Below are positions 14,485 through 50,002 of a stretch of 64,000 nt of DNA, piece by piece. Position 1 is the first letter of the stretch. The number at the start of each line of letters is the position of its first letter. The notes beneath the pieces were generated by a model. That model was not told the origin of the DNA. It did no database searches and saw only the letters and a program-made list of their open reading frames with translations. The translations under genes and the position numbers were made by a program. The stretch spans positions 38,493-102,492 of the IMG/VR virus record IMGVR_UViG_3300030503_000212; one strand, given 5' to 3'. Source of the DNA: a virus.

Positions 14485-14955
14485 GTGAGCTATTCAGATC
14501 GTGCGAAAGCGTCGTACTCAAGAGTAAGTCGTGACTTGATGTTGCGTGCGTCGATTTCCGAAAGTGTGTTGGCAGAGGCGTTACGAGGTCGTGTGACTCC
14601 AGCAGCATCGCCGTTCGATATTATTATTGACGACATTAGTGTGGCTATTGAGCTTAAGGTGCTAGTGAGTTCAGCCCGTGAGGGCCAAGTGTTCGTCAAC
14701 AAACATGCTATGGGTCGCAAACAACAGTATCTCGTTGAGCGTGGGATGCAGCCATTCATGATAGCGATTGATTACAGAGCGGGTGAACCTGCGTATTACA
14801 TTCGTGAGGGTGTGGCATCGTATAGACTTAAAAACATGCAGCGTTGCAAGAGTCCACGAGCGATGAGGATGTACCTCAATCGTTATGTCAGGGCTACTGC
14901 AATGGCTCTAGAGATAGCCACAGGTGCTCAGAATGCCGCGTTCAATGATGCCTAG
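14485..14955 (+). CDS. PD-(D/E)xK nuclease-fold protein (paralog of 62147..62515)
   Basis: SPFDII...IELK catalytic pattern. Confidence 0.7.
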   Translation: MSYSDRAKASYSRVSRDLMLRASISESVLAEALRGRVTPAASPFDIIIDDISVAIELKVLVSSAREGQVFVNKHAMGRKQQYLVERGMQPFMIAIDYRAGEPAYYIREGVASYRLKNMQRCKSPRAMRMYLNRYVRATAMALEIATGAQNAAFNDA

Positions 14956-16354
14956 TGAGGTTCCCAAGCCCACACCCCTCTACGATCAGCAGCCTAGTAG
15001 GGATAACGAGTTCGCCAAAATTCTTAGGGACAAGAAAGCACGCATCAAGCACACCTCGGAACAGCCAGCAAATTTCTTTGAGAATCGTCCTACGCCCGGC
15101 GTAACAGCTGGTGGGCCGGGATCTGGTCGTTATCCTAAAGGTTCGCATCAAGATATTGGTGAGACTCTCAGCAAAAAGATTGGCAAGAACTGGGATGGTG
15201 CCGTTAAGTATTACAACAGTATTCCGAATACGGACGGCGGGCGAATCCTAAATACGGATGAGGCACGAGAACTATCGTCAGCCTATCGCGCTGACCGTAC
15301 GCGTTCTGCCGAGGTACACGAACCTGCCAGTCAGTTCATTAAGGATCTGTACGCACACAAGCTCTCACAACCCACGCCTGCCGGGTATAAGCCAGTCGTG
15401 CTGTTTACAGCGGGTGGTACCGGAGCTGGTAAATCAGTATCGTTGCGGGCTGCTGATCCGCAGGACTTAGCCAGTAAAGCTGAAATCGTTTACGACACAA
15501 ATATGAACAATGTGCCGTCTGCAACCGCCAAAATCAATCAGGCTTTGTCTGCTGGACGCAACGTCCGTATCGCATACACCTACCGAGATCCGGTTGAGGC
15601 TATGACGGGTGGGGCGCTGCCCCGGGCAATGCGGATGGGGAGAACCGTTCCACTTGCAGAGCACATCAAAACCCATGTGGGAGCTTATGCAACAGTAAGT
15701 TCATTACAAAAGATTTATGCGGACAACCCGAATGTGCAGTTTCGGTTGTTCGATAATTCGCGTGGTCCGGGCAATGCTGCACAGGTACTTACTGTTGACG
15801 ATCTGCCCAAAATGGCAGATAATGGACTCGAAGGGAGACTACATGAAGCACTTAATCAAGCACGAACCTCCGGGCGAATCTCGGAGGCCGTCTACCAAGG
15901 AACCCTCGGAAAAGGACTGGGGCGAGCAGTTGGTAGCCAATCTGAATCGAAACGTGTTAGCGGAGCAAGAGCAGGAACAGCACGAAGCTCAACAGTAAGT
16001 GCTGGCGGTCCAGGTTCAGGACGCTATCCCAAGGGTTCTGGTAAGCAGAATGGCCCGGTCGGTCGTGCTCCAGCAGGCCGTGACAGCGGAGGAGTACGAG
16101 ACGGGGCCGGTGGGTCGGATCTTTATCGGGATCGGCGGATTCAAGCCGCCTATCAGGTAAAACCAGATCAGGCATCATTGGCACGTCTGATGGGTCCAGG
16201 TTGTTACCGTGTTGTTGGAGACCAACTCCTGACGGTTACAAAACATGCTGGCTTGGCTCGTTCGTTTGCAGACCGTATGGCGACCGGTGCCCAAATAGTT
16301 CAGGTGTACAACGGTGAGGGTAGGGTTATCTATGCAAAGGGTGGTGGAATCTGA
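14924..16354 (+). CDS. zeta-toxin-like P-loop kinase flanked by two AGGPGSGRYPKGS motifs
   Basis: VLFTAGGTGAGKS Walker A, IVYDTN, YTYRDP...RAMRMGRTVP. Confidence 0.8.
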   Translation: MLRMPRSMMPSEVPKPTPLYDQQPSRDNEFAKILRDKKARIKHTSEQPANFFENRPTPGVTAGGPGSGRYPKGSHQDIGETLSKKIGKNWDGAVKYYNSIPNTDGGRILNTDEARELSSAYRADRTRSAEVHEPASQFIKDLYAHKLSQPTPAGYKPVVLFTAGGTGAGKSVSLRAADPQDLASKAEIVYDTNMNNVPSATAKINQALSAGRNVRIAYTYRDPVEAMTGGALPRAMRMGRTVPLAEHIKTHVGAYATVSSLQKIYADNPNVQFRLFDNSRGPGNAAQVLTVDDLPKMADNGLEGRLHEALNQARTSGRISEAVYQGTLGKGLGRAVGSQSESKRVSGARAGTARSSTVSAGGPGSGRYPKGSGKQNGPVGRAPAGRDSGGVRDGAGGSDLYRDRRIQAAYQVKPDQASLARLMGPGCYRVVGDQLLTVTKHAGLARSFADRMATGAQIVQVYNGEGRVIYAKGGGI

Positions 16355-16602
16355 TGATCGATCTTAAGGATACGGAGACTGCTGTTCAATCGGAATATGG
16401 TTGGTTACTGGACAACGGCTTGTTGTGCATCGGCCTTGGCTCGTGCAGCATGGTGGATTGGGTAACGTATACCGATGAGAATGCCATTCGATTTGCTCGC
16501 GCCCAAGATGCGGTGAATATGCGATCAGCGCTTAGAGGCGTCAACATGGGAATCTCTATGATGATGGATCGGTGTAAGCCGGTGGAGCATGCTTGGGGCT
16601 AG
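16354..16602 (+). CDS. hypothetical protein
   Basis: TGATG coupling to upstream stop. Confidence 0.55.
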   Translation: MIDLKDTETAVQSEYGWLLDNGLLCIGLGSCSMVDWVTYTDENAIRFARAQDAVNMRSALRGVNMGISMMMDRCKPVEHAWG

Positions 16603-16674
16603 TCAACGATATTTCGTGACACCAGAATCTCGCTTGTGGTATTTGTATTGCAGCGCGGTGAAAGGAACACCCCC

Positions 16675-17160
16675 ATGAATCTTGAACAGACATTGAGCCT
16701 ACAAGCAGCGAAAAAGGCTCCTGAGGGTGACGGAGAGCCCGGACCCGGACACAAGATTTTCAATGGTTTCTTTGTTAAGGTTGAGCACCCAGCAGGCAGT
16801 GTACGCACTGGGATCGCTCCCGATGGTCAGACATGGGCCGTACGAATGGCTAATGACTACGGTGAGCTCCCAGGCTCGATTGGGAGCGACGGAGATCCGG
16901 TGGATGCCTATCTAGGTCCCCACAATGATGCTAAACTCGTACACGTCATCCATATGCATGATCCTGACGGGGCATATAACGAGGACAAAGCCATGATCGG
17001 GTTCAAGGGCCAGAAGTCTGCTATCGCCGCGTTTCGTAAGCATTATGCGCCGGGCGTAGCCAAAATCGGGGCTATTACATCACATACTGTTGCTGGTTTT
17101 CGTAAGCAAGTGCGACTGTCGAAAAAGGCAGGCGGCAAAAAGCTACACGCAACTTACTAA
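16675..17160 (+). CDS. inorganic pyrophosphatase-like (InPase) phage domain protein
   Basis: VEHPAGSVRTG, DYGELPGSIGSDGDPVDAYLG, NEDKAMIGF; RBS AAAGGA before ATG 16675. Confidence 0.85.
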   Translation: MNLEQTLSLQAAKKAPEGDGEPGPGHKIFNGFFVKVEHPAGSVRTGIAPDGQTWAVRMANDYGELPGSIGSDGDPVDAYLGPHNDAKLVHVIHMHDPDGAYNEDKAMIGFKGQKSAIAAFRKHYAPGVAKIGAITSHTVAGFRKQVRLSKKAGGKKLHATY

Positions 17161-17211
17161 TGATTTACCTGTGCAGCGAGCAATCGCTCTCTAGAACATT
17201 CTTATGAGGGC

Positions 17212-18711
17212 GTGACGATGGCAGCTCCTACAGGACCCATTCAACTCATCGGTACAATAGAAAGTTCCTTGGGAGTTCCGTTCAACGGGGCTTTTCTATT
17301 GCAGTTGAATACATACGGCTCCGTTTTACCATCAGCCGGTGGTGGGAAATACATCGGAGTCAGTCCAACTACTGTTGTACGTGTTCCGGTTATCAATGGA
17401 CAGGTACAGGCATCACCCCAGATTTATGTTTGGGGCAACGATGCAATGCAGGGCAATACGTGGTACATCGTCAAGCAGATAGACAGTAACGGCAACATTC
17501 TGATGACGATTAATGTGCTGATCGTTGGCAGCTCTCCCTATGATTTGGGATCGATGCAGCCCTATCAGACAGCCGGACTTCCGTCGTATCTGGCTATCGG
17601 GCAGCTCCTGGGCCAACCCGGCCCTCCATTAGTCCCGTACGGCGCGTGGTCGTCAACAGTAAATTACCCTGCTGGAGCTGTGGTCTCGAACGGTGGCCAA
17701 TCCTTTATCAGCTTGCAGGCCGGAAACATTGGATACCCTCCTACGCTTGCAGGATCAGCTCCATTCTGGATGCTACTGGCGAACGGCTATCAGCTCAATG
17801 AGTACATTGCATCGATCACATTCACAGGCGTTCAGACAATGGTCGTTACACATGGGCTTAATACGCTAACGCCTATCATCCAAGCATTTGTAGCATCTGG
17901 AACGACGCAGTACACAGCAAATGTTATTGACGCGAACAATATTCAGCTCAAGTGGTTTGGAGCAGCGGTTGTTCAGTTGCTCGTTGCCACACCCTCCGAG
18001 TTCATCAACACAGCAGCCTCATACAACGCATCAGCTCTGCCGACTGGTGGACTTGTAGCCCATTGGCCGATGAACGAGGGTTCAGGATCGACGTTCTACA
18101 ACACACAAAATAGTGCGAACAACATTACAGCCACTGGTGTTACCTGGGCTGATCTACCGGGTACATCTCAGCTTGCTCCAACATTTGCTGATGGTAGTTC
18201 TGCTGTTGCTGCTGTCGTCGATCCTCTAGCGGACTTTGATGGGTCAAAACCGTTCTGTGTTTCGATGTGGATTGAGAACAATGCGCCGGATACACACATC
18301 AGAAATCTGTTGACAGGTTTGTTTCCAGGTGGGATCGCAAACCAGAACACAACGGGTTTCAACTGGACGATTCAAGGGGCAACCGGGTCTCTCGTTCGGA
18401 ATTTCAGTACACCCACAACAGTCGGCACGCTTTATCACATTGTTTGGATGTATGACGGATCAAAGAGTGCTGGAGCTGTCAGCTCGTTGACCGGATTGTT
18501 CCGATACGTCAATGGTGCGGCTGATAATAATACGTTCGGACCGACAACCAGCAATCTCACAGTCACACAGTTCTCAGCCACGCCCGTTACATTGGGTGGC
18601 GCTGCTAGTGGCGGCTTTGTGGGCAAGATTGCTGGTCTCCGTGTCTACAACAGAATGTTGCAGGCTTTTGAAATCACACAGCTTTATCAAGCTGGACCGG
18701 CAGGAGTGTAG
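17212..18711 (+). CDS. virion/tail fibre protein with CBM5/12-like module and C-terminal LamG/ConA-like domain
   Basis: WSSTVNYPAGAVVSNGGQSF...PFW; LVAHWPMNEGSG...SMWI...YHIVWMYDG...LRVYNRML. Confidence 0.8.
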   Translation: MTMAAPTGPIQLIGTIESSLGVPFNGAFLLQLNTYGSVLPSAGGGKYIGVSPTTVVRVPVINGQVQASPQIYVWGNDAMQGNTWYIVKQIDSNGNILMTINVLIVGSSPYDLGSMQPYQTAGLPSYLAIGQLLGQPGPPLVPYGAWSSTVNYPAGAVVSNGGQSFISLQAGNIGYPPTLAGSAPFWMLLANGYQLNEYIASITFTGVQTMVVTHGLNTLTPIIQAFVASGTTQYTANVIDANNIQLKWFGAAVVQLLVATPSEFINTAASYNASALPTGGLVAHWPMNEGSGSTFYNTQNSANNITATGVTWADLPGTSQLAPTFADGSSAVAAVVDPLADFDGSKPFCVSMWIENNAPDTHIRNLLTGLFPGGIANQNTTGFNWTIQGATGSLVRNFSTPTTVGTLYHIVWMYDGSKSAGAVSSLTGLFRYVNGAADNNTFGPTTSNLTVTQFSATPVTLGGAASGGFVGKIAGLRVYNRMLQAFEITQLYQAGPAGV

Positions 18712-18714
18712 ATC

Positions 18715-21087
18715 ATGTCCATCGTAGCGTTTCCAGCACAAGTTTCGAGCACTACTTTCTATGCCAGTCAATGCGGCTGTGCCCTTGATGGTGTGACAGA
18801 TGATGCTCCAATCATCAATGCCATTCTCGCTACAGCAACACAGGCTACGCCCATTAAGTTCATCATTGATGGCTTAGCAGCGGTATCTGACCTTACGATC
18901 TCGCCCCTTGGTTTCACAACGATTGAGGGTTTGGGTTGGTCAACAGGATTTATCCGGATTCCCTCGGGTACGTTCTCCAATAACGGTATCAGCATTGGGC
19001 CGTATTCGTTATCCAATCCTTATCAGGATGGACAGACTGTTGCGTCGCCTGCAATAACAGCGAACTACATTGAGTTGCGTGATTTCAGTATGAATCTGAA
19101 TTTCCCATCGGGGAATCCGTCGTTTACAGCAGCGAATTTCCCTGTGTCTGGCGCACCACCTCATGCAACGTTTGGAATTTGTCTATTCGGTTGCAATGAA
19201 GTATTGATCGATCATCTCCTGCTTTTAGCACCTCCGTACTACAACATTCTTGTGTCGAACTGCACGAACGTAACGGTCCAAAATTGTGATCTCTTGTCCA
19301 ACACGCAACTGCGTGATGGTGTTCACATTGACGGGCCGTCATCCAACATCAAGGTGCTCAATTGCGATATTGCAACTGGCGATGACGGTATCGCGATTAA
19401 CTGCCCTGAGGGTGCTGGTGGTGATATCAACGGTGTGTTCATTGACAACTGCCGGTTCACAGCTGCGGGTAGCTTGGTGCGTATTTACACGTCAACATCC
19501 GCACTCCCAGGAGCTATTTATCATGCCCGCAACATTGTGATTTCGAACTGCACTGGAACATCACTCGGTGCGCCGATTCATATTGGTGTTGAGGGTGCTC
19601 CAGCATCTACTGTGGAGCAGGTGCATGATGTCATTGTGAGCAATTGCAGCTTTGGATCAAATGCAGCTGAGAGTGTTGGTTTCCTTTCAATCAACATGCC
19701 GTTCGATCTGGTCATCATCCGTGACTGCATATATTTGCCGACAACAACGAGCCCGGTGGTGGCTGTACAGTCGCTTTCGACAGCAGGTACATTGGAACTG
19801 CGCAACCTCAAGGTCATGCGGAATGCAGATGGCAACGCGGCACCTGCGTTTATTTCACTGCAAAACTGCACGATTAACAAATTGGTCCTTGATATTAGTG
19901 TTGAGGATTTGGTGGGGAGTTCCTACACACCACTCCCAACAGTAATAACTGCATCAGGAGCATTCGGCAGCGGCAGCGGCTCAACAATAAGTCATCTTGT
20001 CATTGAGCGAATCGGTACGCTCCATATTACTCAGCTATTTGACTCTACGTTTGGACCCGCCTTTACGGTTACATCCGTTGAGGGCAGCGGTGTTCTGAAC
20101 ACAGGCTGGGAGATACCAGATGCCAACATGGGCAACAACTCGCCTTATATCTCCAGCACAGAGGCCGGGGATGTGTCGATCAAAATTAGTGGTGTGCCTT
20201 ATGCGTTTCAGTTCTCATCCGGGGTTGCTCCGCTTGCATTCAATTTGCTGTCTAGCGGAGTAAATCTTTCAGCAGCGATGGTCCTGGGTAGTGGGGCGAG
20301 CCTGACAGCGAGCGGTGGTGGTTCGATTAGTGCTAACGAGCTGAACGGTGCGCTTGTTCCCGCATCGAGCGCGGTACTAGGCTCAAATTCGTTGGGACAG
20401 CTTACCAATAACTCAGCGTCGTTCCCATCGTTGACAGGGACCAACCTGCACACAGGGGCTAATACGTTTTCTGGTGTGGTGACGGGAGCAGGCTTTACGG
20501 CAACCGGTGCAGCCCCACTCCTTATCCCCAATAGCACGTTCATCGAAGCACTAACGAGCGGTGGCGGCGCTGCTGCAATCATTGGGGTGAGTGGTGGCGC
20601 GGGCAATGCACTGTTGGTGGGATCTCCAGCAGCAACTGGCACAGGCGGTGTTCATCTTTACGCCAGCGGTACGGATGCGTTGGATGTCACAAGTCTTGGT
20701 GTATTTTCCAACGTGCCGCTCACAGCTCCGAATATTAATCAGGTTTTGTATGCCGAGTTTTTCCTGGGGCTAACTGGAGCAGTCCTTTCGACGACTGGTG
20801 CAATAACACCAAGTACGGGTTTATATCGGATATCGACGCAGGTTCGAGTTGTTGGTGGAGCTACAGCTGGGACTGTTGTGTTGACAGCGAACTGGACGGA
20901 CAGCCATGCAGTTGAGGGCAATACGATGGCGAATGTTTCCTTAGTAAACGCGTCTAATACGTTCCAAAGTATTATGGTGATAGCCAACGGCGGAACAGCT
21001 TTGAAATTCAATACCACATGCGCCGCGACAGGATCTTATTCGTATGATCTTGCAGTCATGTTCGAGTTAATACCCGCAGTAGCTTAG
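18715..21087 (+). CDS. tailspike/depolymerase with pectin-lyase-like beta-helix
   Basis: DGVTDDAPIINA start; repeated N/V/I-x-I-x-NC rungs; RDGVHIDG...ATGDDGIAIN GH28-like acidic motif. Confidence 0.85.
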   Translation: MSIVAFPAQVSSTTFYASQCGCALDGVTDDAPIINAILATATQATPIKFIIDGLAAVSDLTISPLGFTTIEGLGWSTGFIRIPSGTFSNNGISIGPYSLSNPYQDGQTVASPAITANYIELRDFSMNLNFPSGNPSFTAANFPVSGAPPHATFGICLFGCNEVLIDHLLLLAPPYYNILVSNCTNVTVQNCDLLSNTQLRDGVHIDGPSSNIKVLNCDIATGDDGIAINCPEGAGGDINGVFIDNCRFTAAGSLVRIYTSTSALPGAIYHARNIVISNCTGTSLGAPIHIGVEGAPASTVEQVHDVIVSNCSFGSNAAESVGFLSINMPFDLVIIRDCIYLPTTTSPVVAVQSLSTAGTLELRNLKVMRNADGNAAPAFISLQNCTINKLVLDISVEDLVGSSYTPLPTVITASGAFGSGSGSTISHLVIERIGTLHITQLFDSTFGPAFTVTSVEGSGVLNTGWEIPDANMGNNSPYISSTEAGDVSIKISGVPYAFQFSSGVAPLAFNLLSSGVNLSAAMVLGSGASLTASGGGSISANELNGALVPASSAVLGSNSLGQLTNNSASFPSLTGTNLHTGANTFSGVVTGAGFTATGAAPLLIPNSTFIEALTSGGGAAAIIGVSGGAGNALLVGSPAATGTGGVHLYASGTDALDVTSLGVFSNVPLTAPNINQVLYAEFFLGLTGAVLSTTGAITPSTGLYRISTQVRVVGGATAGTVVLTANWTDSHAVEGNTMANVSLVNASNTFQSIMVIANGGTALKFNTTCAATGSYSYDLAVMFELIPAVA

Positions 21088-21121
21088 CGCAACATAAAGT
21101 CAGTGGGAAAGGGACTTATTT

Positions 21122-21607
21122 ATGACGGTCAATCAAATATGGATCAGGATCATTGACAGTATTCTCAGTGGGGCAGCATTCTCGATATTTGCCTGCATCT
21201 TGATGTTTGCCCGGTACAGGAAACAGAACAGTAAAGGTGTGTTGTTCGCAATTGCATTTTGCATCATTACAGCAGGCAACGCCTTTTGTGTGGCATACGA
21301 CCTGTACAACAATTCTCACGTACTGATGACAATCATAGGGCCGCTTGCATCAGTCACTAAGATTCTGTTCGCACTGTACTGCTGGCATAATTTCAGTGCG
21401 ATTGCTATTGTTGTCCGCAAGCACATACAAGACTACTTTTTGCAGAACAATCCTGAGGCGCATATTGACCGGCAGCAGCGTCGGATAAATCTGGGATACC
21501 TATCAGAGATGACACGAGCACGGGCCACTGCGGTTTTGTCTTGGACGATGATGAGGAGCACGGCAAATGACAATCCCGATTCCGGCGTGGGTATCAACCC
21601 TCGGTAG
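21122..21607 (+). CDS. 3-TM membrane protein
   Basis: Three hydrophobic segments followed by a soluble tail. Confidence 0.6.
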   Translation: MTVNQIWIRIIDSILSGAAFSIFACILMFARYRKQNSKGVLFAIAFCIITAGNAFCVAYDLYNNSHVLMTIIGPLASVTKILFALYCWHNFSAIAIVVRKHIQDYFLQNNPEAHIDRQQRRINLGYLSEMTRARATAVLSWTMMRSTANDNPDSGVGINPR

Positions 21608-21920
21608 TTTGTCGCCCCTCATCGTGGGGGTGGCTGGCATTCTGGTGGGCCGTAAAACAAAAGCGGCGACGGACGATGTCAGGTACAGTGATTTGCATAC
21701 GCGCATCACCACTCTTGAGGAGGTCCAGTCAAAGCATGTGCAGACTTTAGCAGCCGTGCAACAGACTTTAGAGTTCTTTGAGGATCGGTTTATTCGCATA
21801 GAGCAGGTTGGCGATGCTACAGCTGGAATGGTTGCTGAAATGCGTGGAATGCTTTATGCCATGAACGGACAAGTTCCGCCCCCGATACAAATAGCTCCGA
21901 TGCTGCCGAGGCGCAGATAG
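21567..21920 (+). CDS. single-TM plus coiled-coil protein (possible holin/lysis accessory)
   Basis: N-terminal TM then heptad repeats; RBS GAGGAG. Confidence 0.55.
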   Translation: MTIPIPAWVSTLGSLSPLIVGVAGILVGRKTKAATDDVRYSDLHTRITTLEEVQSKHVQTLAAVQQTLEFFEDRFIRIEQVGDATAGMVAEMRGMLYAMNGQVPPPIQIAPMLPRRR

Positions 21921-22642
21921 TGAATCAGTTCGATATACAAACCGCAGCGCTCTCTAATCGCAGGTGCTGGCAGATAGCACGTAAGACATTACGGGTTGAC
22001 CCACGCTGTGCCCAGAGAGATCAGCTCCAACTTTATGTTGCACGTTTACACGATGCATTGGATACGATAGGCGACGAGTACCTGAACGATCCAGATACTG
22101 TTGAGGACAACACGAACAAGCATCATGGGATCTTGCTGGCAGTGGCTACCCCCATGATTGCCGGAGCCTATCTGGCAGGCTATCGCCAGACGAGTGCAAT
22201 CCTTGATCAGAAAGTATCTCCGGCAACGGTCCAGCTGATTCAAGCTGAGGCTCAAGGCCGGGCCGGGTACATGGCGTCAACCATGACCCAGACGACGCGG
22301 GAACGGGCTCCTGTGCTCTCGGGCGACCCAGACAGCGATCAGGAGCTTACCCAGGCATTCAGGGGTGGTTATACGTTCTCTAAAGATCGTGCTAAGGCTG
22401 CTACGACCTACGAGATGGTCAAAGGCTATAAGGCCATGGTGGAACGCTCCCTGAGAGCCTCAGGACAGTCTTGGGGCAAGTGGTGGGAAGTTTCTGATGC
22501 TCATGAGGTTCAGGATGACTGCGATTTGAACGAGGATGCTGGCGTAATCCCGATAGGGCAGGAGTTTCCGTCTGGAGATCAACAGGAACCTCAACACCTT
22601 TTTTGCCAATGTAGTGTTTTCTATACAAGGATGGATCTATGA
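21920..22642 (+). CDS. MuF/SPP1 gp7-like head morphogenesis protein
   Basis: KWWEVSD...DDCDLN...IPIGQEFPSGDQQEPQHLFCQC C-terminal signature. Confidence 0.8.
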   Translation: MNQFDIQTAALSNRRCWQIARKTLRVDPRCAQRDQLQLYVARLHDALDTIGDEYLNDPDTVEDNTNKHHGILLAVATPMIAGAYLAGYRQTSAILDQKVSPATVQLIQAEAQGRAGYMASTMTQTTRERAPVLSGDPDSDQELTQAFRGGYTFSKDRAKAATTYEMVKGYKAMVERSLRASGQSWGKWWEVSDAHEVQDDCDLNEDAGVIPIGQEFPSGDQQEPQHLFCQCSVFYTRMDL

Positions 22643-23409
22643 CGATCAACAAATGGTGTTTGGTAGCTCTTACGGTGTGTGGTTGTGCCTGCTTAATTGT
22701 GTTGACGATGTTTCTGTTGACAGCACGCCATACTGACTTAGTGTTGCAGAATCGTACAGCCGTGTTTATGGACTCTACAACGGCAGTTGTCAAAACGTTG
22801 ACTAAGGCATGCCCTATTGGGGTCAGTGCAGGACCCGATTGCGGTCTACTGGTACAGCTCAACAACTCCATTGTGCAGCTCAATAATGTCACTGTGCAAT
22901 TGAAATCGGTTGCTGGTGGTGTCAATAATCTTATGTTTGCCAGCACCCAGACAGTCAACAGTCTTAACGCTACGGTTGAAAAGATCAATCGGGACTGTGG
23001 GGATAAAGCTGACGATGCATGCGGAACATTAGCCGACGTTGCCAAGACACTCAACACTTTTCGGAGGACGGCGGGATACGCTGAGATAGCTGCGGATCAC
23101 GAGGATAAAAACCTTACGAAACTGGATGGACAAGAGGCTATGCTGTTTAGCGATTTTCATAATACGTTGGGATCAGGCAGAGATAGTATTGACAGTCTGA
23201 CCATTCTGTTGAAAAACACAAACATTCCTGTAGTCATAAAGAACGTAGCTGACATGACGACAACCGGCAATCACATGTTGGTTACGGCTGACGCCGTGGA
23301 GACCAAGTTGACGAAATGCACACTACACCCTACGTTCGGCTGCACGTTCAAGGCTGATGCAATCTTTGGAGCTCAGGTGAGCGGCTATATCCTGTCAGGC
23401 TTGCACTAA
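22639..23409 (+). CDS. membrane-anchored helical/coiled-coil protein
   Basis: N-terminal Cys-rich TM then amphipathic helices. Confidence 0.65.
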   Translation: MTINKWCLVALTVCGCACLIVLTMFLLTARHTDLVLQNRTAVFMDSTTAVVKTLTKACPIGVSAGPDCGLLVQLNNSIVQLNNVTVQLKSVAGGVNNLMFASTQTVNSLNATVEKINRDCGDKADDACGTLADVAKTLNTFRRTAGYAEIAADHEDKNLTKLDGQEAMLFSDFHNTLGSGRDSIDSLTILLKNTNIPVVIKNVADMTTTGNHMLVTADAVETKLTKCTLHPTFGCTFKADAIFGAQVSGYILSGLH

Positions 23410-23472
23410 TTGTTGTAGAGTAGACGTATTCCTGTGGCAGCATTCATAAGTAAGTTTTGAGGTATAGAGGCG

Positions 23473-23622
23473 ATGGCACACGTCGGACACAAAGTCATGA
23501 AATGTCGCCAGTGCGGCGCAGTCGTTTTGCAGTGCCGTTGTATGGAACCAGATAAGACTGTTGAGTATGTCGACAGCTGTTCGCGTTGTGAATTAGTAGC
23601 TGCGACACCAGGGAGGGTTTAG
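23473..23622 (+). CDS. 49-aa Cys-rich protein (not in ORF track)
   Basis: GAGG RBS; CRQC, CRC, CSRC. Confidence 0.5.
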   Translation: MAHVGHKVMKCRQCGAVVLQCRCMEPDKTVEYVDSCSRCELVAATPGRV

Positions 23623-23624
23623 CT

Positions 23625-24071
23625 ATGCCGAACGTAAATAACTTTGTGTACGACCATGCCGGATTAGTACTGACAGAGGGTTTTGAGGGTCTACGGTTGG
23701 TAGGCTACCCGGATGTCAGGGGTGTTCCGACGAACGGCTACGGGCATACAGGACCTGATGTGTATATCGGGCAGATCATCGAACAAGCACAGGCTGAGGC
23801 ATGGCTGGCAAGCGATATCGCTTGGGCGGCTCAGGCTGTCAACGATATGGTGACTGTCCCTATCGATCAGAATCAGTTTGATGCCTTGGTAGATTTCGTG
23901 TTCAATGATGGAGCTCAGGCATTCAAAACTTCACACCTTTTGATATTCATCAACGAAAATAATTTTGCAGCAGCTGAGGACCAGTTTATGTTGTGGGTCA
24001 ACTCCGGTGGCAAACGGTTCGATGGTCTGGTACGTCGTCGGACAGCCGAAGTCGCATTATTCAAGCAGTAA
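23625..24071 (+). CDS. endolysin, GH24 phage lysozyme
   Basis: FEGLRLVGYPDVRGVPTNGYGHT catalytic E/D/T; QNQFDALVDFVFN; GLVRRRTAE. Confidence 0.93.
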   Translation: MPNVNNFVYDHAGLVLTEGFEGLRLVGYPDVRGVPTNGYGHTGPDVYIGQIIEQAQAEAWLASDIAWAAQAVNDMVTVPIDQNQFDALVDFVFNDGAQAFKTSHLLIFINENNFAAAEDQFMLWVNSGGKRFDGLVRRRTAEVALFKQ

Positions 24072-24111
24072 AACGCGAACAAGTTCATAGATTCAAAATG
24101 GGAGAAACACA

Positions 24112-26040
24112 ATGATTGCCAATCGTAGTTTGGTTCAGCAGCATGTACCGGGCGACGCTAAAGTGCGTGCTCGTTGGGCGCGAACGTTCGCGCCCTCGTC
24201 CAAGTTCTATTACACACGTGTTCGCTTGTTGAATGCGGCGCTGCCTGAGGAAACTGCGAACATCACAGCCAATACCACGATCAAGCGTCAGCCACTTATT
24301 ATTGACGCGAATACCCGCAATTACGGTCGTGTTGGAACGTTCATTCCCAAGTGCCTCGTCATAGCTGGCAATGCGGTACGGCGTGAGGCTCTAGGACAAG
24401 GCAAGAGCTATGCGATGGCATGGGTCGGTGAGAATGCGCTGCGAGACATGAACGTATTCGCCTCGGATGGCATCAGCTACGACGAGCTGTATCAGAAACT
24501 CAGTGCGGCGCTGCGTAAAAAGTTCAAACAGGGATCTGGTGATGGCTACGATGATGTTGCCGAGGTCGGGTACTCCTTAGGTGGCCCTTACATCAGTTCC
24601 GTGTTTCCGTTTGACAACAACGTTATTTTTTCACTCAACGGACAGACATTTCAACTGGATTACACCATCGATACGCAGGCTCGTACCGTGGCGTTCACGG
24701 GTACGCCTGTCAAGGTGGAGCAAGAGTATGTGGATGTGGACGGATGCGGCAGTATAGATTCGTTCGATCCTCGTTCCCGTGCTCCGTATGTCCCTACAGG
24801 GCTGCGAGTGAACCCAACGATGGTTCTGCCAAGCCTGTTTACTGTCTCGCTTGGTGCCGTTAATTCCGAGTTGCGGAATCCTATGTTTGGTGAGGCATTC
24901 TTGAACGTAGACAAGGTGGTTAATGCCTATCTCAGCGACATCAAGAACGGTACTCATCAGGCCGTGGTTCCGTGGGGATCTCCCATCCCTCTTACACGGA
25001 TGGTGTTTGCCGGTGAGCTGCGAAATCGCGGTGTGAATTCGCCAGCAGATTTCTTTGTATGGGTCGATGCCAACAAGTCCAAAACGGTTAGCGGAGATCC
25101 TGTTGACGCGGACGACTTTGCGTACATCGGCGACCCCAAGAAAAAGGAGACTTGGAAATTGCCCATTCATGATAAGGGACATGTGCGGGATGCGATGTCA
25201 CGGTTCGATCAGACGGATCTGCCGTCTGAGGCCAAACCCAAGGTCGCCCGTAAGATTTCCAAGCGGGCTAAGGGCATGGGTATCGATACGACCGACTTTG
25301 ACAAGGAATACACTGTCAAGGCCGGTGGTCCTGGGAGTGGGCCGCGTCCCCACGGTGGCTCGGGAACAGGGCACAGCAACAGTAACGATCAGGCGGCAAC
25401 AGTAAGTGAGTTTAAGAATCGTGGTTATAGCGGACACGAGACACCAGACCCAGACGGAACAGTTCATCTGTCCAAGTCCAGTGACGATCCGAACACGGGC
25501 GACCGTGATGCCCACATTCATGAGGATGGATCATGGACACATTCTGATGAGCACTACAACACTAAGAAAGGCGGCGCGTCATACGACGTGGCTAAGCAGC
25601 TTGGGCCTGTTGCAGTGAAAGCTGGAGGTCCAGGCAGCGGTCCCAGACCTGGCGGTGGCCACGATGCTTATGATGACGGACAGCACGGTAAAAAACCCAG
25701 CAATGATGAACGTGGTTATGAGGACGGACAGAGAGATCCAGCCGGTTTCAAGCATGACCATGACTCACGAGATGCTACAGTTGCAGCGTTTAAGGACAAG
25801 GGTTACAAAGAGGATACTCCTGAACCCGGTACAGAAACAGTGGACCATGGTGGACGCTCTTTGAGTCGCGATGACGGTGCTAAGGGGTTCAAACATGCTG
25901 AGGTGCATCCTGACGGCACGTTCACACACACTGCTGGACCGTGGGATACGTATCGCGGGCGGAATGCGGGTGAGGTAGGCAAACTGCTAGGAGCCACCAG
26001 TAAGAAAAAGTCACTACGTGCAAAGCTGTTGGGCCGGTAG
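24112..26040 (+). CDS. multidomain head-associated protein with two V-K-A-GGPGSG-led modules
   Basis: SYDELYQKLSAAL...YISSVFP domain; LPIHDKGHVRDAMSRF (DUF6582-like); two homologous C-terminal modules. Confidence 0.75.
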   Translation: MIANRSLVQQHVPGDAKVRARWARTFAPSSKFYYTRVRLLNAALPEETANITANTTIKRQPLIIDANTRNYGRVGTFIPKCLVIAGNAVRREALGQGKSYAMAWVGENALRDMNVFASDGISYDELYQKLSAALRKKFKQGSGDGYDDVAEVGYSLGGPYISSVFPFDNNVIFSLNGQTFQLDYTIDTQARTVAFTGTPVKVEQEYVDVDGCGSIDSFDPRSRAPYVPTGLRVNPTMVLPSLFTVSLGAVNSELRNPMFGEAFLNVDKVVNAYLSDIKNGTHQAVVPWGSPIPLTRMVFAGELRNRGVNSPADFFVWVDANKSKTVSGDPVDADDFAYIGDPKKKETWKLPIHDKGHVRDAMSRFDQTDLPSEAKPKVARKISKRAKGMGIDTTDFDKEYTVKAGGPGSGPRPHGGSGTGHSNSNDQAATVSEFKNRGYSGHETPDPDGTVHLSKSSDDPNTGDRDAHIHEDGSWTHSDEHYNTKKGGASYDVAKQLGPVAVKAGGPGSGPRPGGGHDAYDDGQHGKKPSNDERGYEDGQRDPAGFKHDHDSRDATVAAFKDKGYKEDTPEPGTETVDHGGRSLSRDDGAKGFKHAEVHPDGTFTHTAGPWDTYRGRNAGEVGKLLGATSKKKSLRAKLLGR

Positions 26041-38331: not shown

Positions 38332-38586
38332 GTGCTTATCTACATGCGACAATCAATGTCAACATTCTTGACCGGTTCTAGTCCATTGCGTGCAGCTATA
38401 TCGTCAGTAGGCGTTAGGGCTGGAATCTCTAAAAAGTGCCGGGCACGTGATAAGACCAAAGGTCAACACGCAAAATGCTCGGGCAAGTATCGTGGCGGCG
38501 ACAATCGTATCCATCAATGCCAATGCTCGTGTCATAGGATACAAATAAAGGCCGCTTGTGCTGTGGAGCTTGATCCGAATCTTTGA
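38332..38586 (+). CDS. Cys-rich peptide 2 ending CQCSCH...AVELDPNL
   Basis: Paralogous C-terminus; start may be internal. Confidence 0.6.
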   Translation: MLIYMRQSMSTFLTGSSPLRAAISSVGVRAGISKKCRARDKTKGQHAKCSGKYRGGDNRIHQCQCSCHRIQIKAACAVELDPNL

Positions 38587-39557: not shown

Positions 39558-41555
39558 GTGTTTACGTTACTCAAACGACTGCATCAGGCTTTCACCTCTC
39601 GCGTTACGGCGTATTTCCGTAAGCGTGAGATTGTGCGTGTGCTGAGAGCAACGCACATGGTGGAGCTGGCACAGACGCCGGTGCATCGACATCCCCAGCT
39701 CATAGCTCAACAGCGCCATGAAATTGAGGGAATACGAGCTGGGAAACTACCACTCGTGAATCGCCGGACATTAGCCAATACAGGCTTGCCGATCACGTTC
39801 ACACGCATCAATGCTCCGGTAGCAAAACAAACTCCGTTATCGATGCGCCGATTCTCCCGCACGCCAGTACCATCACGGGCGATCAATCTAGTTAAGGCAG
39901 GCTTGCTTGGATTGAATTGGGAGATCCGGGCGATTGAGGGTAAGGCTAATCCTGATAATCCGGATGTCAAGGCTCGCATCAATATTGCGACCGACTGCAT
40001 GAACAAGCCGAACGATGACGATTCGTTTCGCACGTGGATCGAACAGGTGCTCAACGACTATCTGATCTTTGGTATGGGTTGCACTGAAACCCAGGCGAAT
40101 CCATTTGACAATCGTCCTGTCAAAATGTGGGCCGTTGACGGCAACACTATTCAGATTGTTGGTCAATGGAAAGAGTCTGAGAAAGACATTCTGCCGCGTT
40201 ACGTGCAGCAGCTCCCCTACACGACAGCCACGAATCAAGGTGTGATGCTGTTCGATGACGAGTTGATGTGTATTCGTGACAACATCGCTACAGACTCACC
40301 ATTTGGTTTTGGATGCTTAGAGATTGCCTATAAGTGCATTGCGGATTTGTTAGGAGCTCAACGTCAGGCGGGTAACGCAGCGTCGGACCAGCTGGGCAGG
40401 AGTATTTTCTGGTGGTCTGGAGCTGTAGCCCCGCAGGCAATGACGGATCTGCGCGATTACATCCAAGGTGAGCTTGAGGGTGCAGCTCGTTTGGGTATGA
40501 TTGGCGGTGCTCCCAAGCCCGATCTGATCGAGACGAATCCAACGCAACCCAATGACTTACTGTTGCCGTGGCATGAAATGCTAATCCGGATGATTGGCAA
40601 CTCATTCAATCTGTCTGGTATGGCGTTGGGTATCGAGCGCGATGTCAACAGAAATACAGGCGAAGTTCTTGATGACAAGGATTTTCGCTCAGCAGTAGTT
40701 CCGGTAGCCAAGCGTTTCCAAGAGGCGATTACACGTCGCATTATTCACGTCAAAATGGGTTGGGATGACCTTGAGCTTGTGTTCAAGGGTACCGAAGATC
40801 CTGACATGGAAACGAAGCTCGCTATCCAGCAGGCACGGTATCAGGCAAATGCTATGACTGGGAACGACATGAATGTAGAGATGGGCTATAAGAAAATCGA
40901 CAGCCCATTTGCAGACATCACGAGCATTGAGTGCCAATTCTTGATGGCCTACATCGCCAAGCTGCCTGCTCAGGTCAATCCTAATGCGCCACCAATGCTC
41001 CCAGGCGGGCCGGGACAGCCTCCAATGGGACAGCCTCCAATGGGCCAGCCTGCTCCCGGTGGAGGTGGATTCAAGCCCAAGCCGCCTGTGGGCGTTAAAC
41101 AGCTCAGTCTGCCTAAGCCCGGACCTCTCAAGCTGCCTATGAGTGCGAATGAATTGCTGGGAATGAACAAGACGTATCTGCGAGCACTACAGTACGCCAG
41201 TGTGTTGCCGAAATCGTCTATCGTTCTGGCTGATGCAATGGAGGCCGATCAGCCCGGTGTGCTCAAGGAACTTTCTGATGAGGTGTGGGACTATTTCGAG
41301 GAGTTGGCAGAGCGCGAGATCGACAAGAGTAAGTCGCGTAAGGCTACGCTCAGTAAAAAGTGGACGGACTTGGCTAAAAAGCGTTATGGTAGGGATGCAA
41401 AGCGGTATAAGAATCTCCACGAGCATGGTGGGTTCTTTGGATTACCGTTGAGCAGTGCTGCTGCATCCTCTCCCGTGAAAGCTCCCCGTAAAGTTGGCAA
41501 TCGTCAACAAATTGGTGGGCGTCAAAAGAAAGTCAAAACGGGATTGAGGTACTAA
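39558..41555 (+). CDS. portal protein with Pro-rich and basic C-terminal extension
   Basis: Position before protease/capsid; NKPNDDDSFRTWIEQVLNDYLIFGMG, VDGNTI, FGFGCLE portal-like motifs. Confidence 0.88.
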   Translation: MFTLLKRLHQAFTSRVTAYFRKREIVRVLRATHMVELAQTPVHRHPQLIAQQRHEIEGIRAGKLPLVNRRTLANTGLPITFTRINAPVAKQTPLSMRRFSRTPVPSRAINLVKAGLLGLNWEIRAIEGKANPDNPDVKARINIATDCMNKPNDDDSFRTWIEQVLNDYLIFGMGCTETQANPFDNRPVKMWAVDGNTIQIVGQWKESEKDILPRYVQQLPYTTATNQGVMLFDDELMCIRDNIATDSPFGFGCLEIAYKCIADLLGAQRQAGNAASDQLGRSIFWWSGAVAPQAMTDLRDYIQGELEGAARLGMIGGAPKPDLIETNPTQPNDLLLPWHEMLIRMIGNSFNLSGMALGIERDVNRNTGEVLDDKDFRSAVVPVAKRFQEAITRRIIHVKMGWDDLELVFKGTEDPDMETKLAIQQARYQANAMTGNDMNVEMGYKKIDSPFADITSIECQFLMAYIAKLPAQVNPNAPPMLPGGPGQPPMGQPPMGQPAPGGGGFKPKPPVGVKQLSLPKPGPLKLPMSANELLGMNKTYLRALQYASVLPKSSIVLADAMEADQPGVLKELSDEVWDYFEELAEREIDKSKSRKATLSKKWTDLAKKRYGRDAKRYKNLHEHGGFFGLPLSSAAASSPVKAPRKVGNRQQIGGRQKKVKTGLRY

Positions 41556-41556
41556 G

Positions 41557-43062
41557 ATGGCCAAGCTCATCACAATGTTGCGGGCACAAACCAGAACCTC
41601 AGGACTTACTATTGAGGCTGATGCGGCGCATCCCAATAAGCTCAAGTTTAAGGGCATATTAACGCGTTTAGACGAACCCAGCACCAAGCCTCCTCAGGGT
41701 TCGATGGAACATCTTATTCAGATGCCCTCGGATGTTGCCAAAAAGCGTCTAGAGACGTTGATTGGCATGGGTGTCAACTATGCGGAAAATCTGGATGCCC
41801 ATGAGATCACACATAAGGTTGGCGTGATTGAAAAGGCATGGATCAAGGGCAACGCGTTATGGGTATCCGGTTATGTTTGGGTCGGGGACTTTCCCGATGC
41901 CGAAAAAGTTTTGTCGACTAAAGGACTAGGTATGTCTATGGAGTTGACACACGTGCTGGTGGAGGACAGAGATGCGGACCCTTGGGTTCTCAAAGACTTT
42001 GTTTTCACAGGAGCAACTTTCTTGCGTAAGACGAATGCCGCGTACTTCGATACTGAGGCTATTGCGGCATCCGCCTCTACATCAATTTTCATTACGACGG
42101 AGGCAGCGATGCCCAAGACGAATGCAACCACCCGTGCAGGCAGCAAAAAGCCTGTAATCAAATTGTCTGCTCAGGAGATCAAGCTCGCCAATCTTACGGC
42201 GGCGTCGGCCTCTGCGAGCATTACCAAGGCGCTAGGCACTCCGCTGGCATCGATTGCAGCCAGCCTCGACCGCAGCAACAAGGTTAACGAGGAGATCCTG
42301 GCACGCCTCAATGCCGAGGGCGACGATGAGGATGACGACGATACCATGGCCTCCGGAGACGGGGACGATGATGATAACGACGTTCTCGACGAAAAAGGCA
42401 CAAAGGTAAAAGCAGGCAAGAAAAAGCCTGCCAAAAAGGACGACGACGATTCGGATGACGACTTCGACGAGGACGAGGATGATCCGGACGGCGACGATGA
42501 CGACGATGAGGATGACGACGATGTCGATTCGTCCAATGCGCTTGTTGACGCTGCCACTGAAACCGGCACTGACCCCGATGCCGGGGATTGCGATGAACCG
42601 GGCCACGTGAACGAGGATGCTGAGGATCGTGGCAACACCACGACTCTTGAGGACAAACAGGGGCCGATCAAGAGTGCCAAAATGGCAGCTGCCAAGTACA
42701 AAAAGGCAGCTGGCAAGTGGAAAACCAAAGCGCTCAAGTTCTCTGGGCTTGCGAAGTCGTTACAGGCAGAGAATGCTCGTCTGCGGGCCAAGGCTGAGGC
42801 TGCTGGTACCAAGGTGTCGGCTGCGAGCCGTGAGGCTGTACGGCAGACTTTGACATCATCGGCGCTGACGATCCTCACAAAGAACGGTATGGACGCGGGC
42901 GATCTGCGGGCCTCGGGTCAGGCGCTCTCGACAGAGGAAGTCGACGCCATGCTCAAGAACCTGCCGCATCCTCTGGAGGTTGAGGATCGCATTGCATTCA
43001 AGCGCGAGCTACAGGCAGCTGGGCTCATGGTTGTCACCGCAGCTCGTAAGACTCGTGCGTAG
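41557..43062 (+). CDS. prohead protease-scaffold fusion
   Basis: N-domain HEITHKVGVI...LWVSGYVW...GMSMEL (His/Ser of HK97/assemblin-like proteases); Asp-rich linker; C-terminal coiled coil. Confidence 0.85.
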   Translation: MAKLITMLRAQTRTSGLTIEADAAHPNKLKFKGILTRLDEPSTKPPQGSMEHLIQMPSDVAKKRLETLIGMGVNYAENLDAHEITHKVGVIEKAWIKGNALWVSGYVWVGDFPDAEKVLSTKGLGMSMELTHVLVEDRDADPWVLKDFVFTGATFLRKTNAAYFDTEAIAASASTSIFITTEAAMPKTNATTRAGSKKPVIKLSAQEIKLANLTAASASASITKALGTPLASIAASLDRSNKVNEEILARLNAEGDDEDDDDTMASGDGDDDDNDVLDEKGTKVKAGKKKPAKKDDDDSDDDFDEDEDDPDGDDDDDEDDDDVDSSNALVDAATETGTDPDAGDCDEPGHVNEDAEDRGNTTTLEDKQGPIKSAKMAAAKYKKAAGKWKTKALKFSGLAKSLQAENARLRAKAEAAGTKVSAASREAVRQTLTSSALTILTKNGMDAGDLRASGQALSTEEVDAMLKNLPHPLEVEDRIAFKRELQAAGLMVVTAARKTRA

Positions 43063-43128
43063 TATCCCACTACTCTTACTTGTGAACTTTCTGTTGTAAG
43101 CAACACAAATTCGAGAAAGGTGGGATAC
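43062..43128 (+). promoter_or_regulatory. structured intergenic leader of the capsid gene
   Basis: GTATCCCAC (43062-70) pairs with GTGGGATAC (43120-28) over the RBS; inner TGTTG-TAAG-CAACA hairpin. Confidence 0.5.
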
Positions 43129-43134
43129 CCCATC

Positions 43135-44142
43135 ATGAGCAAAGCAATGTTTATAGACCGCATGAGTGCGGCGGCTACGTACCTGGGGCCGGGCGTGATC
43201 GAAGTCGATTCGTATCAGACTGAGATTACCGACCTTGTACGCCGTCGTTTCCAGTTCGGACAGCGCATCAAGCAGACTCGGGCAACCGGCCAGCCGTCGC
43301 GTTATTTCGAGCAGTTCACCATTCCGCTCGGTGAATTTACCAACCCACGGCAGATCGTCAGCGAGGCAGCTCAGCCGTCGCGTGGTGAGCGTGCCCTGAA
43401 CCTGAAGGCCATCGTTTCGGCGATGAATTTCAGCTTGTTCGATGTTGAGGTAACGCAGCAGCAGGGTGAGTTTCAGGGCTTGCAGGCCAAGGATCTTACG
43501 GACCTCGTGAACGGCGTCATGTACACACATGATCTCGCTCTCTGGGCCGGTAATGACACCGATCTGCTTGCGAACACCACCACACAGTATGTGGGCTGTT
43601 CGGGACAGATCCTGCGTGGCGCTGAGTTGGCTAACATCGGCAACGGTGTGACCACGATCACGCCTGTAACCGGTTCCGGCATCGTGTCGGGAGCTTCGTC
43701 CATCGTCGATCAGATCAAGACTTACATTGCATCCATGGTGGCACGTGAGGATTACGAGGTGCTGCCTACCAGCATCTATGCAAATCCTCTCACCTGCGAT
43801 CAGTTGGATCGTGAGGCCAAGCTGCTCAACCTGAACGTGGATAAGGTTCAGATCACTCCCGGTCTGGTGGTTACGGCCATCATGACGCAGGCGGGTTTGA
43901 TTCCGATCATCCCCGATGCATCGATCAAGGTGTTCCCCCAGGGCAACGGCACGTTCCTGCACACGTTCTTTGTCACGACAGACAACATGATCGAGTACCA
44001 CTACCTGACTGATCCAAATCCCCGTGTATTCCAGCTGGGACTGACGGGTAACTTGGGTGGTTCGTTCTCCGTCGTGAAGTTCGGAGCGCCGGTTGTTAAG
44101 GGTGCTCCGTATGCTCACGGCGCACTAATCATGATTCGGTAA
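43135..44142 (+). CDS. major capsid protein (HK97-fold inferred)
   Basis: Follows protease/scaffold; about 335 aa; strongly biased codons; followed by hairpin. Confidence 0.85.
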   Translation: MSKAMFIDRMSAAATYLGPGVIEVDSYQTEITDLVRRRFQFGQRIKQTRATGQPSRYFEQFTIPLGEFTNPRQIVSEAAQPSRGERALNLKAIVSAMNFSLFDVEVTQQQGEFQGLQAKDLTDLVNGVMYTHDLALWAGNDTDLLANTTTQYVGCSGQILRGAELANIGNGVTTITPVTGSGIVSGASSIVDQIKTYIASMVAREDYEVLPTSIYANPLTCDQLDREAKLLNLNVDKVQITPGLVVTAIMTQAGLIPIIPDASIKVFPQGNGTFLHTFFVTTDNMIEYHYLTDPNPRVFQLGLTGNLGGSFSVVKFGAPVVKGAPYAHGALIMIR

Positions 44143-49628: not shown

Positions 49629-50002
49629 AGGCAGACGAGAGTGCGAATCCGCAGGCAGCAGCGGCGGCATCTTGGATGGAGGCGTTGCACATGCCTCTGC
49701 GTGATATCGAGGATAAGTACACGCTGTCAGAGATCACCCTGATGGCGTGGCGCTCACAAGAGCAGGCTTATCAGATGCGTAGCAAAATGGCAGCAGCCCG
49801 TGCGAATACACCTCGTAAAGCTATTGATGCTGGACCTGTGAACAAGAACGAACAACGCATTACAGGACTCGAACAAGTTGCGGAATCATTCGATAAACCC
49901 CTAGAGGATAGTAAGGGCAATTTCACACTCAAGCATCAATCGGGTGAGAACGCAGCCAAGTTCTTAGCCTCCATGGGATTCGCGGTCAGCTCAATGGGTT
50001 AA
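49595..50002 (+). CDS. tail assembly chaperone frameshift extension (T-like)
   Basis: -1 frame LQRLPRFPRDVEADESANPQAAAAASWMEALHMPLRDIEDKYTLSEITLMAW... Confidence 0.8.
   Translation, partial: LQRLPRFPRDVEADESANPQAAAAASWMEALHMPLRDIEDKYTLSEITLMAWRSQEQAYQMRSKMAAARANTPRKAIDAGPVNKNEQRITGLEQVAESFDKPLEDSKGNFTLKHQSGENAAKFLASMGFAVSSMG

Follow-up and report, generated by a model that had tools for sequence, protein, structure and literature searches.

Why would two unrelated proteins of one phage carry the same glycine-rich peptide at several places along their chains? We examined this question in a stretch of 64,000 nucleotides (hereafter the window; positions 38,493 to 102,492 of IMG/VR record IMGVR_UViG_3300030503_000212), which is part of a 107,763-bp virus record, a 108-kb siphovirus-like genome. 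The peptide, GGPGSG preceded by a hydrophobic-x-Ala tripeptide, is found in a 476-residue kinase protein (P0001) and in a 642-residue protein (P0002), and a preliminary description had proposed it as a protease-cleavage and head-loading signal. We put a probability of about one half on the reading that the motif is a recognition and processing site of the phage's own assemblin-fold prohead protease, punctuating proteins of the prohead interior. A processing site fits the data because (i) each module carries one copy; (ii) genes that stand alone retain a leader before the motif; (iii) the motif is fused to portals and proteases; and (iv) the residue before the putative cut is genome-specific. 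New here are the hydrophobic residue at position −3, the genome-specific residue at −1, and a hydrophobic-x-Ala site in the capsid protein that is conserved in 18 relatives.

A six-frame search found GGPGSG in real open reading frames (ORFs) exactly four times, starting at 15110, 16004, 25324, and 25624, and all copies were confined to P0001 (residues 63 and 361) and P0002 (residues 405 and 505). No further copy was found in the rest of the 107,763-bp genome, and against the four observed, 0.0018 would be expected from the amino-acid composition of the window ORFs (16,940 residues). The upstream tetrapeptides are GVTA (15098), TVSA (15992), TVKA (25312), and AVKA (25612), and the full form of the peptide reads hydrophobic-x-Ala / GGPGSG-[RP]-x-P-x-G-G. 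All four copies listed in the preliminary description are real and lie where it placed them, apart from a first coordinate (15101) that was one codon off (15098). Its statement that the copies use different synonymous codons was also borne out: the two RYPKGS-type copies of P0001 are identical at 13 of 14 residues and differ in codon at 10 of those 13, and the two PRP-type copies of P0002 are identical at 12/12 residues with 11 codons different. Since identical peptides are encoded by mostly different codons, selection acts on the peptide and not on the DNA, and the motif, judged by this codon usage, is under purifying selection at the peptide level. An AlphaFold model of P0002 (58 sequences) has confident domains at residues 1-140, 160-205, 255-400, and 540-628 and low confidence at 405-532; both motif copies open low-confidence stretches, the first directly after a confident helix. 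By these predictions, the window copies sit at domain borders in disordered regions.

The residues before the motif were compiled for 58 copies from 10 genomes, with several of the compared records being fragments. Position −3 (P3) was V, I, L, or F in 50/50 copies of the genomes of Ala, Lys, and Asn type, the type being the residue at −1 (P1). This residue was Ala in 4/4 copies of the window, 4/5 of G001, 4/5 of G002, and 6/8 of G003; Lys in 19/19 of G004 and 5/5 of G005; Glu in 5/5 of G006 and 3/3 of G007; and Asn in 2/2 of G008, where a third Asn was found later (3/3). The exceptions at −1 in the Ala-type genomes were G, C, or S. Pairs of copies with the same P1 within a genome numbered 228, compared with at most 140 in 100,000 shuffles of the labels (P below 1e-5). 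P1 is genome-specific and P3 almost always hydrophobic. Proteases of this clan are known to recognize a hydrophobic P3 together with a fixed P1, as in the [LI]-x-E sites of T4 gp21 and the [VLI]-x-A sites of herpesvirus assemblin. Six more copies were found in distant genomes with a YonD_N-type protease (34-39% identity), all after hydrophobic-x-Ala; across nine genomes with this protease type, 28/28 copies had A, G, C, or S at P1. Similarly, 18 of 145 distant representatives of the P0002 family carried 21 copies, hydrophobic at −3 in 21/21 and with Ala at −1 in 16/21. The Lys-type G004 has an XkdF-type S78_2 protease and the Asn-type G008 a Mu-like protease; a Peptidase_S78 search of the Lys-, Glu-, and Asn-type records gave no match.

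To locate the motif in other phages, IMG/VR was scanned for A-GGPGSG and rescanned for GGPGSG-R, and wrong-frame matches in GC-rich DNA were discarded by eye. Most AGGPGSG matches were true Walker A loops (AGGPGSGK[ST]) of small kinases, which confound any search for the motif; a very common P-loop kinase of about 200-240 residues, starting D-P-x-I-F-K-A-x-F-L-AGGPGSGKS, was noted among loci L001-L239. The GGPGSG-R rescan and reading of the other matches yielded many genuine copies. Pfam annotation placed the motif behind a portal domain in L345 and, in L069, behind a DUF2213 domain of a long ORF that resembles a scaffold. In L392 it separates an XkdF-type protease from a following RelA/SpoT domain, and in L420 and L026 an ADP-ribosyltransferase domain follows it. 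Across IMG/VR phages the motif joins portals and prohead proteases to effector domains, and these contexts show it to be a widespread tag on what are predicted to be proteins of the capsid interior. Up to 4 copies occur per ORF; per record, G004 has 19 (in a 25-kb fragment), G003 has 8, and G001, G002, and G005 have 5 each, with none for a reversed control pattern.

The location of motif-bearing genes in relatives was next compared with that of the head genes. G001 and G003 are complete genomes of 117 and 119 kb whose proteases belong to the same family as that of the window (57% and 51% identity), and their motif-led genes lie between portal and protease and also shortly after the capsid gene (1.5-2.5 kb in relatives). 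Several of 17 further loci, which were found with a three-sequence capsid alignment after a single capsid query had found nothing, place motif-led genes in the head module in the same way. Standalone motif-led genes are many; in these the motif is not at the start but follows a leader of 11-30 residues that ends in hydrophobic-x-P1. One family of 11-residue leaders, M-N/D-L-Q/R-T-x-I-T/S-L/I-x-A/C, stands directly before the motif (G002, G003, and L517; also listed for L507, L508, and L509). Some of the genes that carry this leader sit between those for portal and protease, and it is comparable in length and placement to the capsid targeting sequence of T4. At L504 (G004:1-20000) and L528, an XkdF-type (Peptidase_S78_2) protease gene is followed directly by ten consecutive ORFs with 17/19 motif copies, each after hydrophobic-x-Lys. 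At L122:2446-3462, a 339-residue ORF has a scaffold-like part with coiled coil and closes with L-I-A / GGPGSG and a further 23 residues; Pfam reports no domain in it.

The candidate protease of the window is the product of the gene at 41557 (Table 1). His82 and Ser127 were invariant in 50 homologues, residues 30-160 of its AlphaFold2 (AF2) model have a predicted local distance difference test (pLDDT) score above 90, and Foldseek matched the protease domain to the human cytomegalovirus protease and T4 gp21 with probability 1.0 (E ~1e-4) at a low sequence identity of 14-17%. An acidic disordered stretch and then long helices follow the protease domain, as expected of a scaffold. The fold match and the two invariant residues confirm the identification of this product as an HK97-/assemblin-type prohead protease. 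No match to it was found in PHROGs or the local Pfam copy, and the PF27290 (YonD_N) assignment is from precomputed annotation. This N-terminal domain (41557-42069) has the assemblin/T4 gp21 fold; the family name is silent on protease. In most of the 50 homologues the ordered protease domain closes with [IL]-[AS]-A, which in the window protein reads I-A-A (residues 169-171); the protease may release itself here, and the conservation is consistent with a hydrophobic-x-Ala specificity. A complex prediction of protease residues 20-176 (50-row alignment) with a 36-residue motif window (20-row alignment) gave a median of 0.18 versus a mark of 0.32 and was not used either way.

A similar site was found in the major capsid protein. 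The N-terminus is variable (13-35 residues) among the capsid proteins of the lineage, and in 18/18 it closes with [MVFIL]-x-A ahead of a conserved A-A-[DT]-[YF]; a maturation cut at the M-S-A of the window protein would be consistent with the same specificity. Hydrophobic-x-Ala sites had been described as dense in several head proteins, and this was evaluated by comparing [VILMF]-x-A-[AGS] counts with 500 composition-preserving shuffles. The description held for the protease/scaffold (11 observed versus 4.1 expected, z 3.7, a score inflated because the protein has Ala-rich local stretches) and for P0002 (7 versus 3.0, z 2.4). It did not hold for the portal (2 versus 3.4), the capsid (2 versus 1.95), or the InPase (1 versus 1.4), which were at chance in this test, and there was no enrichment in the tape measure (23 versus 22.1). 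A 108-residue ORF just before the tape-measure gene (49676-50002), whose product is probably a tape-measure chaperone, has 3 such sites versus 0.8 expected (z 2.65, of uncertain significance given multiple testing). The portal has a Pro/Gly/Gln-rich insert of low complexity (PGGPGQPPMGQPPMGQPAPGGGG; window 40990-41070) between its conserved body and its basic C-terminal tail.

Table 1. Motif copies, motif-bearing genes, and head genes in the window.
Feature	Coordinates	Strand	Size or residues	Basis and remarks
P0001: ~62-residue leader, motif, Zeta-type kinase, motif, ~115-residue C-terminal module	14924..16354	+	476 aa	ORF/translation
Motif copy 1: V-T-A then GGPGSG-RYPKGS	15101..15145	+	P0001 residues 60-74	N-terminal to the first column common with Zeta homologues
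Zeta-toxin-type P-loop kinase domain	15146..15913	+	~residues 75-330	Pfam PF06414, E 1.3e-8
Motif copy 2: V-S-A then GGPGSG-RYPKGS	15995..16039	+	P0001 residues 358-372	
InPase	16636-17160			Neighbour of the Zeta kinase gene
P0002: ParB-like N-domain, small beta domain, helical part with DUF6582, two motif-led modules	24112..26040	+	642 aa	
DUF6582-type domain	25066..25302	+	P0002 residues 319-397	pLDDT above 90
Motif copy 3: V-K-A then GGPGSG-PRPHGG	25315..25359	+	P0002 residues 402-416	Model confidence falls exactly at 405
Motif copy 4: V-K-A then GGPGSG-PRPGGG	25615..25659	+	P0002 residues 502-516	
Second motif-led module of P0002	25624..26037	+		Residues 540-628 form a small alpha/beta domain, AF2 pLDDT ~90
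Portal protein	39558..41555	+		Pfam Phage_portal, E 5e-24; PHROG 12; without the motif
Prohead protease (~residues 20-171, PF27290 YonD_N), acidic linker, helical scaffold	41557..43062	+	501 aa	
Candidate self-release site, I-A-A	42061..42069	+	Residues 169-171	End of the protease domain
Major capsid protein	43120..44142	+		Follows the protease gene; 46-54% identical homologues at the same position in relatives
Candidate capsid maturation site, M-S-A then A-A-[DT]-[YF]	43162..43170	+	Residues 15-17	

Within P0001, whose database copy begins 3 codons further on at an ATG, the kinase domain holds its own Walker A (AGGTGAGKS). The 680 homologues of the Zeta domain are 51-61% identical over the kinase part only, and the motif was absent from all of 120 listed homologues; the two P0001 copies therefore bracket the domain and do not belong to it. 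P0004, a P0001 homologue on a 111.6-kb contig that has no N-terminal leader, joins a Zeta kinase to PF18763 by a degenerate G-G-A-G-S-G-R and is an example of module exchange at the motif.

The N-domain of P0002 has a weak Foldseek match to ParB (E 0.06, probability 0.84) and resembles, by eye, ORFs with a DGKHR motif; the fold of P0002 had no PDB match at E 0.001 or better, with a phage P1 head chain at probability 0.08. About 600 proteins, mostly 350-400 residues long, are related to residues 30-395, and neither P0002 nor this related family of ~370 residues is named by Pfam or PHROGs. The motif-led modules are an addition in P0002 and its close relatives. The first (25324-25623) is, by translation, a diverged repeat of the second, like modules follow the motif in other phages, and homologues of P0002 retain the motif while the modules between copies differ. 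Residues 319-397 align at 46% identity (E 1e-19) with the DUF6582 region of P0127, a protein that also has a Peptidase_S78 prohead protease domain; in G008 (L529), a single ORF encodes a Mu-like protease along with a DUF6582-like segment and a copy of the motif. In Atlas clusters, too, DUF6582 is found together with S78 and DUF2213 domains (leads only, with scores below 0.9). These architectures suggest that DUF6582 may be a docking domain of the capsid interior. This domain, a frequent fusion partner of prohead proteases, is a likelier loading element for P0002 than the motif, and the preliminary proposal that the motif itself is the head-loading signal gained no specific support.

Taken in sequence, the steps of the processing-site reading would be as follows. 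P0002 would enter the prohead via DUF6582 and its scaffold-like part, and the 62-residue leader of P0001 would be the candidate for entry of the kinase protein. The protease would cut after Ala inside the prohead, releasing the Zeta-type kinase module, the C-terminal module, and two small alpha/beta modules, each led by GGPGSG; the freed modules would remain inside the capsid and may leave it together with the DNA. The cut, its exact bond, packaging, and ejection are what we infer. In the giant phage SPN3US, gp245 is reported to remove propeptides of 20-254 residues from head and ejection proteins, with several cut sites (PMC10052503).

Several points weigh against this reading. Cleavage in the window phage, as in all motif-bearing phages, is deduced from sequence. 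The highest conservation is on the prime side, where it extends over ~12 residues, longer than a simple cleavage site needs; the motif therefore probably has a further or different role. The upstream residues within one genome may be alike partly through common descent; moreover, hydrophobic-x-Ala is a common tripeptide that the capsid N-arm could conserve for structural reasons. Protease family and P1 are loosely linked, since XkdF-type proteases go with Lys (G004) and with Leu (L392), and Ala at P1 also adjoins DUF2213 (L069). The P0001 and P0002 genes lie 15-27 kb from the head genes, to which motif-bearing genes are adjacent or fused in relatives and other motif-bearing phages, and entry of the kinase protein into the capsid is a proposal. 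Finally, megablast and tblastn searches of the GenBank phage collection found no cultured relative, with no match for the region, the capsid protein, P0002 residues 1-400, or a motif-bearing ParB-like protein; P0001 and one Lys-type ORF each matched a single GenBank phage record, via a domain only.

Cleavage alone does not account for the length and invariance of the prime-side half, which may act in docking or threading; the two roles may also coexist. We tentatively consider a portable and near-universal two-part header of tailed-phage capsid cargo. The upstream three residues would be adapted to the maturation protease of the phage in question, with Ala, Lys, Glu, or Asn at P1, while the glycine-rich half, GGPGSG-[RP]-[RH]-P-x-GG, would stay on the new N-terminus for a later step, e.g., retention in the DNA-filled head or threading through portal and tail. 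Less probable than a processing site, in our view, is a docking or sorting tag that is uncut at this bond, in which GGPGSG-[RP]-x-P-x-GG and the hydrophobic −3 residue would be bound by a partner in the capsid interior, such as the scaffold, the portal, or the inner face of the capsid, or in the ejection path, so as to mark each module for loading, retention, or threading, with any cut incidental or elsewhere. The strongly conserved ~12 prime-side residues, common to phages with different protease families, would suit such a tag, as would the presence of the motif on portals and proteases, which are already in the head. Yet one tag per polyprotein would be enough for loading, and each module is tagged (up to 4 copies per ORF, 19 in 25 kb); the part that varies among genomes is the residue beside the putative scissile bond, whereas the supposedly bound part is universal; and the leader before the tag is retained on standalone genes.

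A plain flexible interdomain linker, serving as a junction for module exchange in polyvalent proteins, appears unlikely. It would account for the constant position of the motif at domain borders in predicted disorder and for the shuffling of the flanking modules among phages, for which the degenerate GGAGSG between the Zeta and PF18763 domains of P0004 is an example. However, linkers tolerate substitutions, and here 12-13 residues are identical with nearly every codon different, a divergence that likewise makes recombination of the copies at the DNA level less likely. A linker gives no reason for a hydrophobic −3 and a genome-specific −1, or for a position 11 residues from the N-terminus of single-domain proteins or ~25 from a C-terminus (L122). 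Very improbable is a degenerate phosphate-binding loop, i.e., a relic or mimic of an adenylate-kinase-type Walker A (GGPGSGK[ST]) that binds nucleotides or DNA. The idea draws on the likeness to the Zeta Walker A and on the true P-loops that make up most IMG/VR AGGPGSG matches, N-terminal in kinases of ~200-240 residues. It was rejected because neither the four copies nor the related ones have the Lys-Ser/Thr pair; R-Y-P or P-R-P follows GSG in all four, in a Pro/Gly-rich context with no helix, the region is predicted to be disordered, and several copies per protein stand beside unrelated domains. A signal-peptidase site was also considered, as small residues at −3 and −1 fit its rule, and was rejected since no hydrophobic signal sequence precedes any copy.

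Known capsid-cargo and maturation systems resemble this arrangement in part. The internal proteins of phage T4 are diverse anti-host proteins in which only a short N-terminal element is common and leads into the scaffolding core (PMC3012670). In the T4 system of IPI-III, Alt, and gp21, the assemblin-fold protease cuts after a hydrophobic-x-P1 triplet, and relatives of the window phage have 11-residue leaders that end in hydrophobic-x-A/C before the motif; the window proteins do not have a T4-type leader of ~10 residues, since 62 (P0001) and 404 (P0002) residues precede the first motif. The conserved element of T4 is the leader that is removed, whereas here it follows the putative cut and would be retained by the cargo. 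In further contrast to T4, the motif is also internal and present several times per protein, P1 is Ala and not Glu, and there is no similarity to the T4 leader. The maturation proteases of giant phages (SPN3US gp245 and phiKZ gp175) are of the same fold class; however, their [A/S/G]-x-E sites are without a conserved prime-side peptide, whereas a glycine-rich peptide follows every site here, and the window phage, with its 108-kb siphovirus-like genome, is not a jumbo phage. Herpesvirus assemblin has a consensus of [VLI]-x-A followed by a small residue. Like assemblin, the window protease is fused to a scaffold, and its I-A-A at the domain end resembles the R site; the L122 motif, located ~25 residues from the C-terminal end of a scaffold-like protein, is placed like the M site. 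Unlike assemblin, which cuts only itself and its scaffold, the same grammar here marks unrelated enzyme modules.

Other precedents concern loading and domain content. A C-terminal segment of HK97 gp4 docks that protein into the prohead, and DUF6582, at the C-terminus of an S78 protease, may play an HK97-type docking role. Phage P1 packages DarA, DarB, and DdrB, some of its packaged proteins being processed before or during packaging (PMC5512222); the motif is shared with neither HK97 gp4 nor the P1 proteins. Phage polyvalent proteins combine Zeta-toxin, InPase, and ParB-type domains, are predicted to be packaged, and are fused to portal or MuF domains, with peptidase processing proposed for some (PMC5512222). 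The peptidases proposed there are built-in zincins and not the prohead protease, and the domains of the window phage are mostly separate genes: P0001 carries one domain of the repertoire (Zeta), and InPase is encoded separately. That paper describes no junction motif and contains neither "linker" nor "glycine". A literature search for GGPGSG found no paper in a phage context, and a longer variant, GHAGRPG, was not found; a preprint on the prohead protease and the cyclic-oligonucleotide-based anti-phage signaling system (CBASS) offered no relevant specificity data.

Phages are thought to carry kinases, ADP-ribosyltransferases, alarmone synthetases, and nucleases into the cell with their DNA, and, to our knowledge, how such enzymes are loaded and freed is understood only for T4, P1, and the giant phages. 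Because P1 is genome-specific, cleavage could be tested directly by expressing two proteins. If the two-part header were true, ~15 added residues could load any protein into the head and release it inside. A motif that marks cargo would let capsid cargo be read from sequence in uncultured phages and would serve as a short tag with which to pack foreign proteins into the head, and the residue before it would predict the specificity of thousands of uncharacterized prohead proteases.

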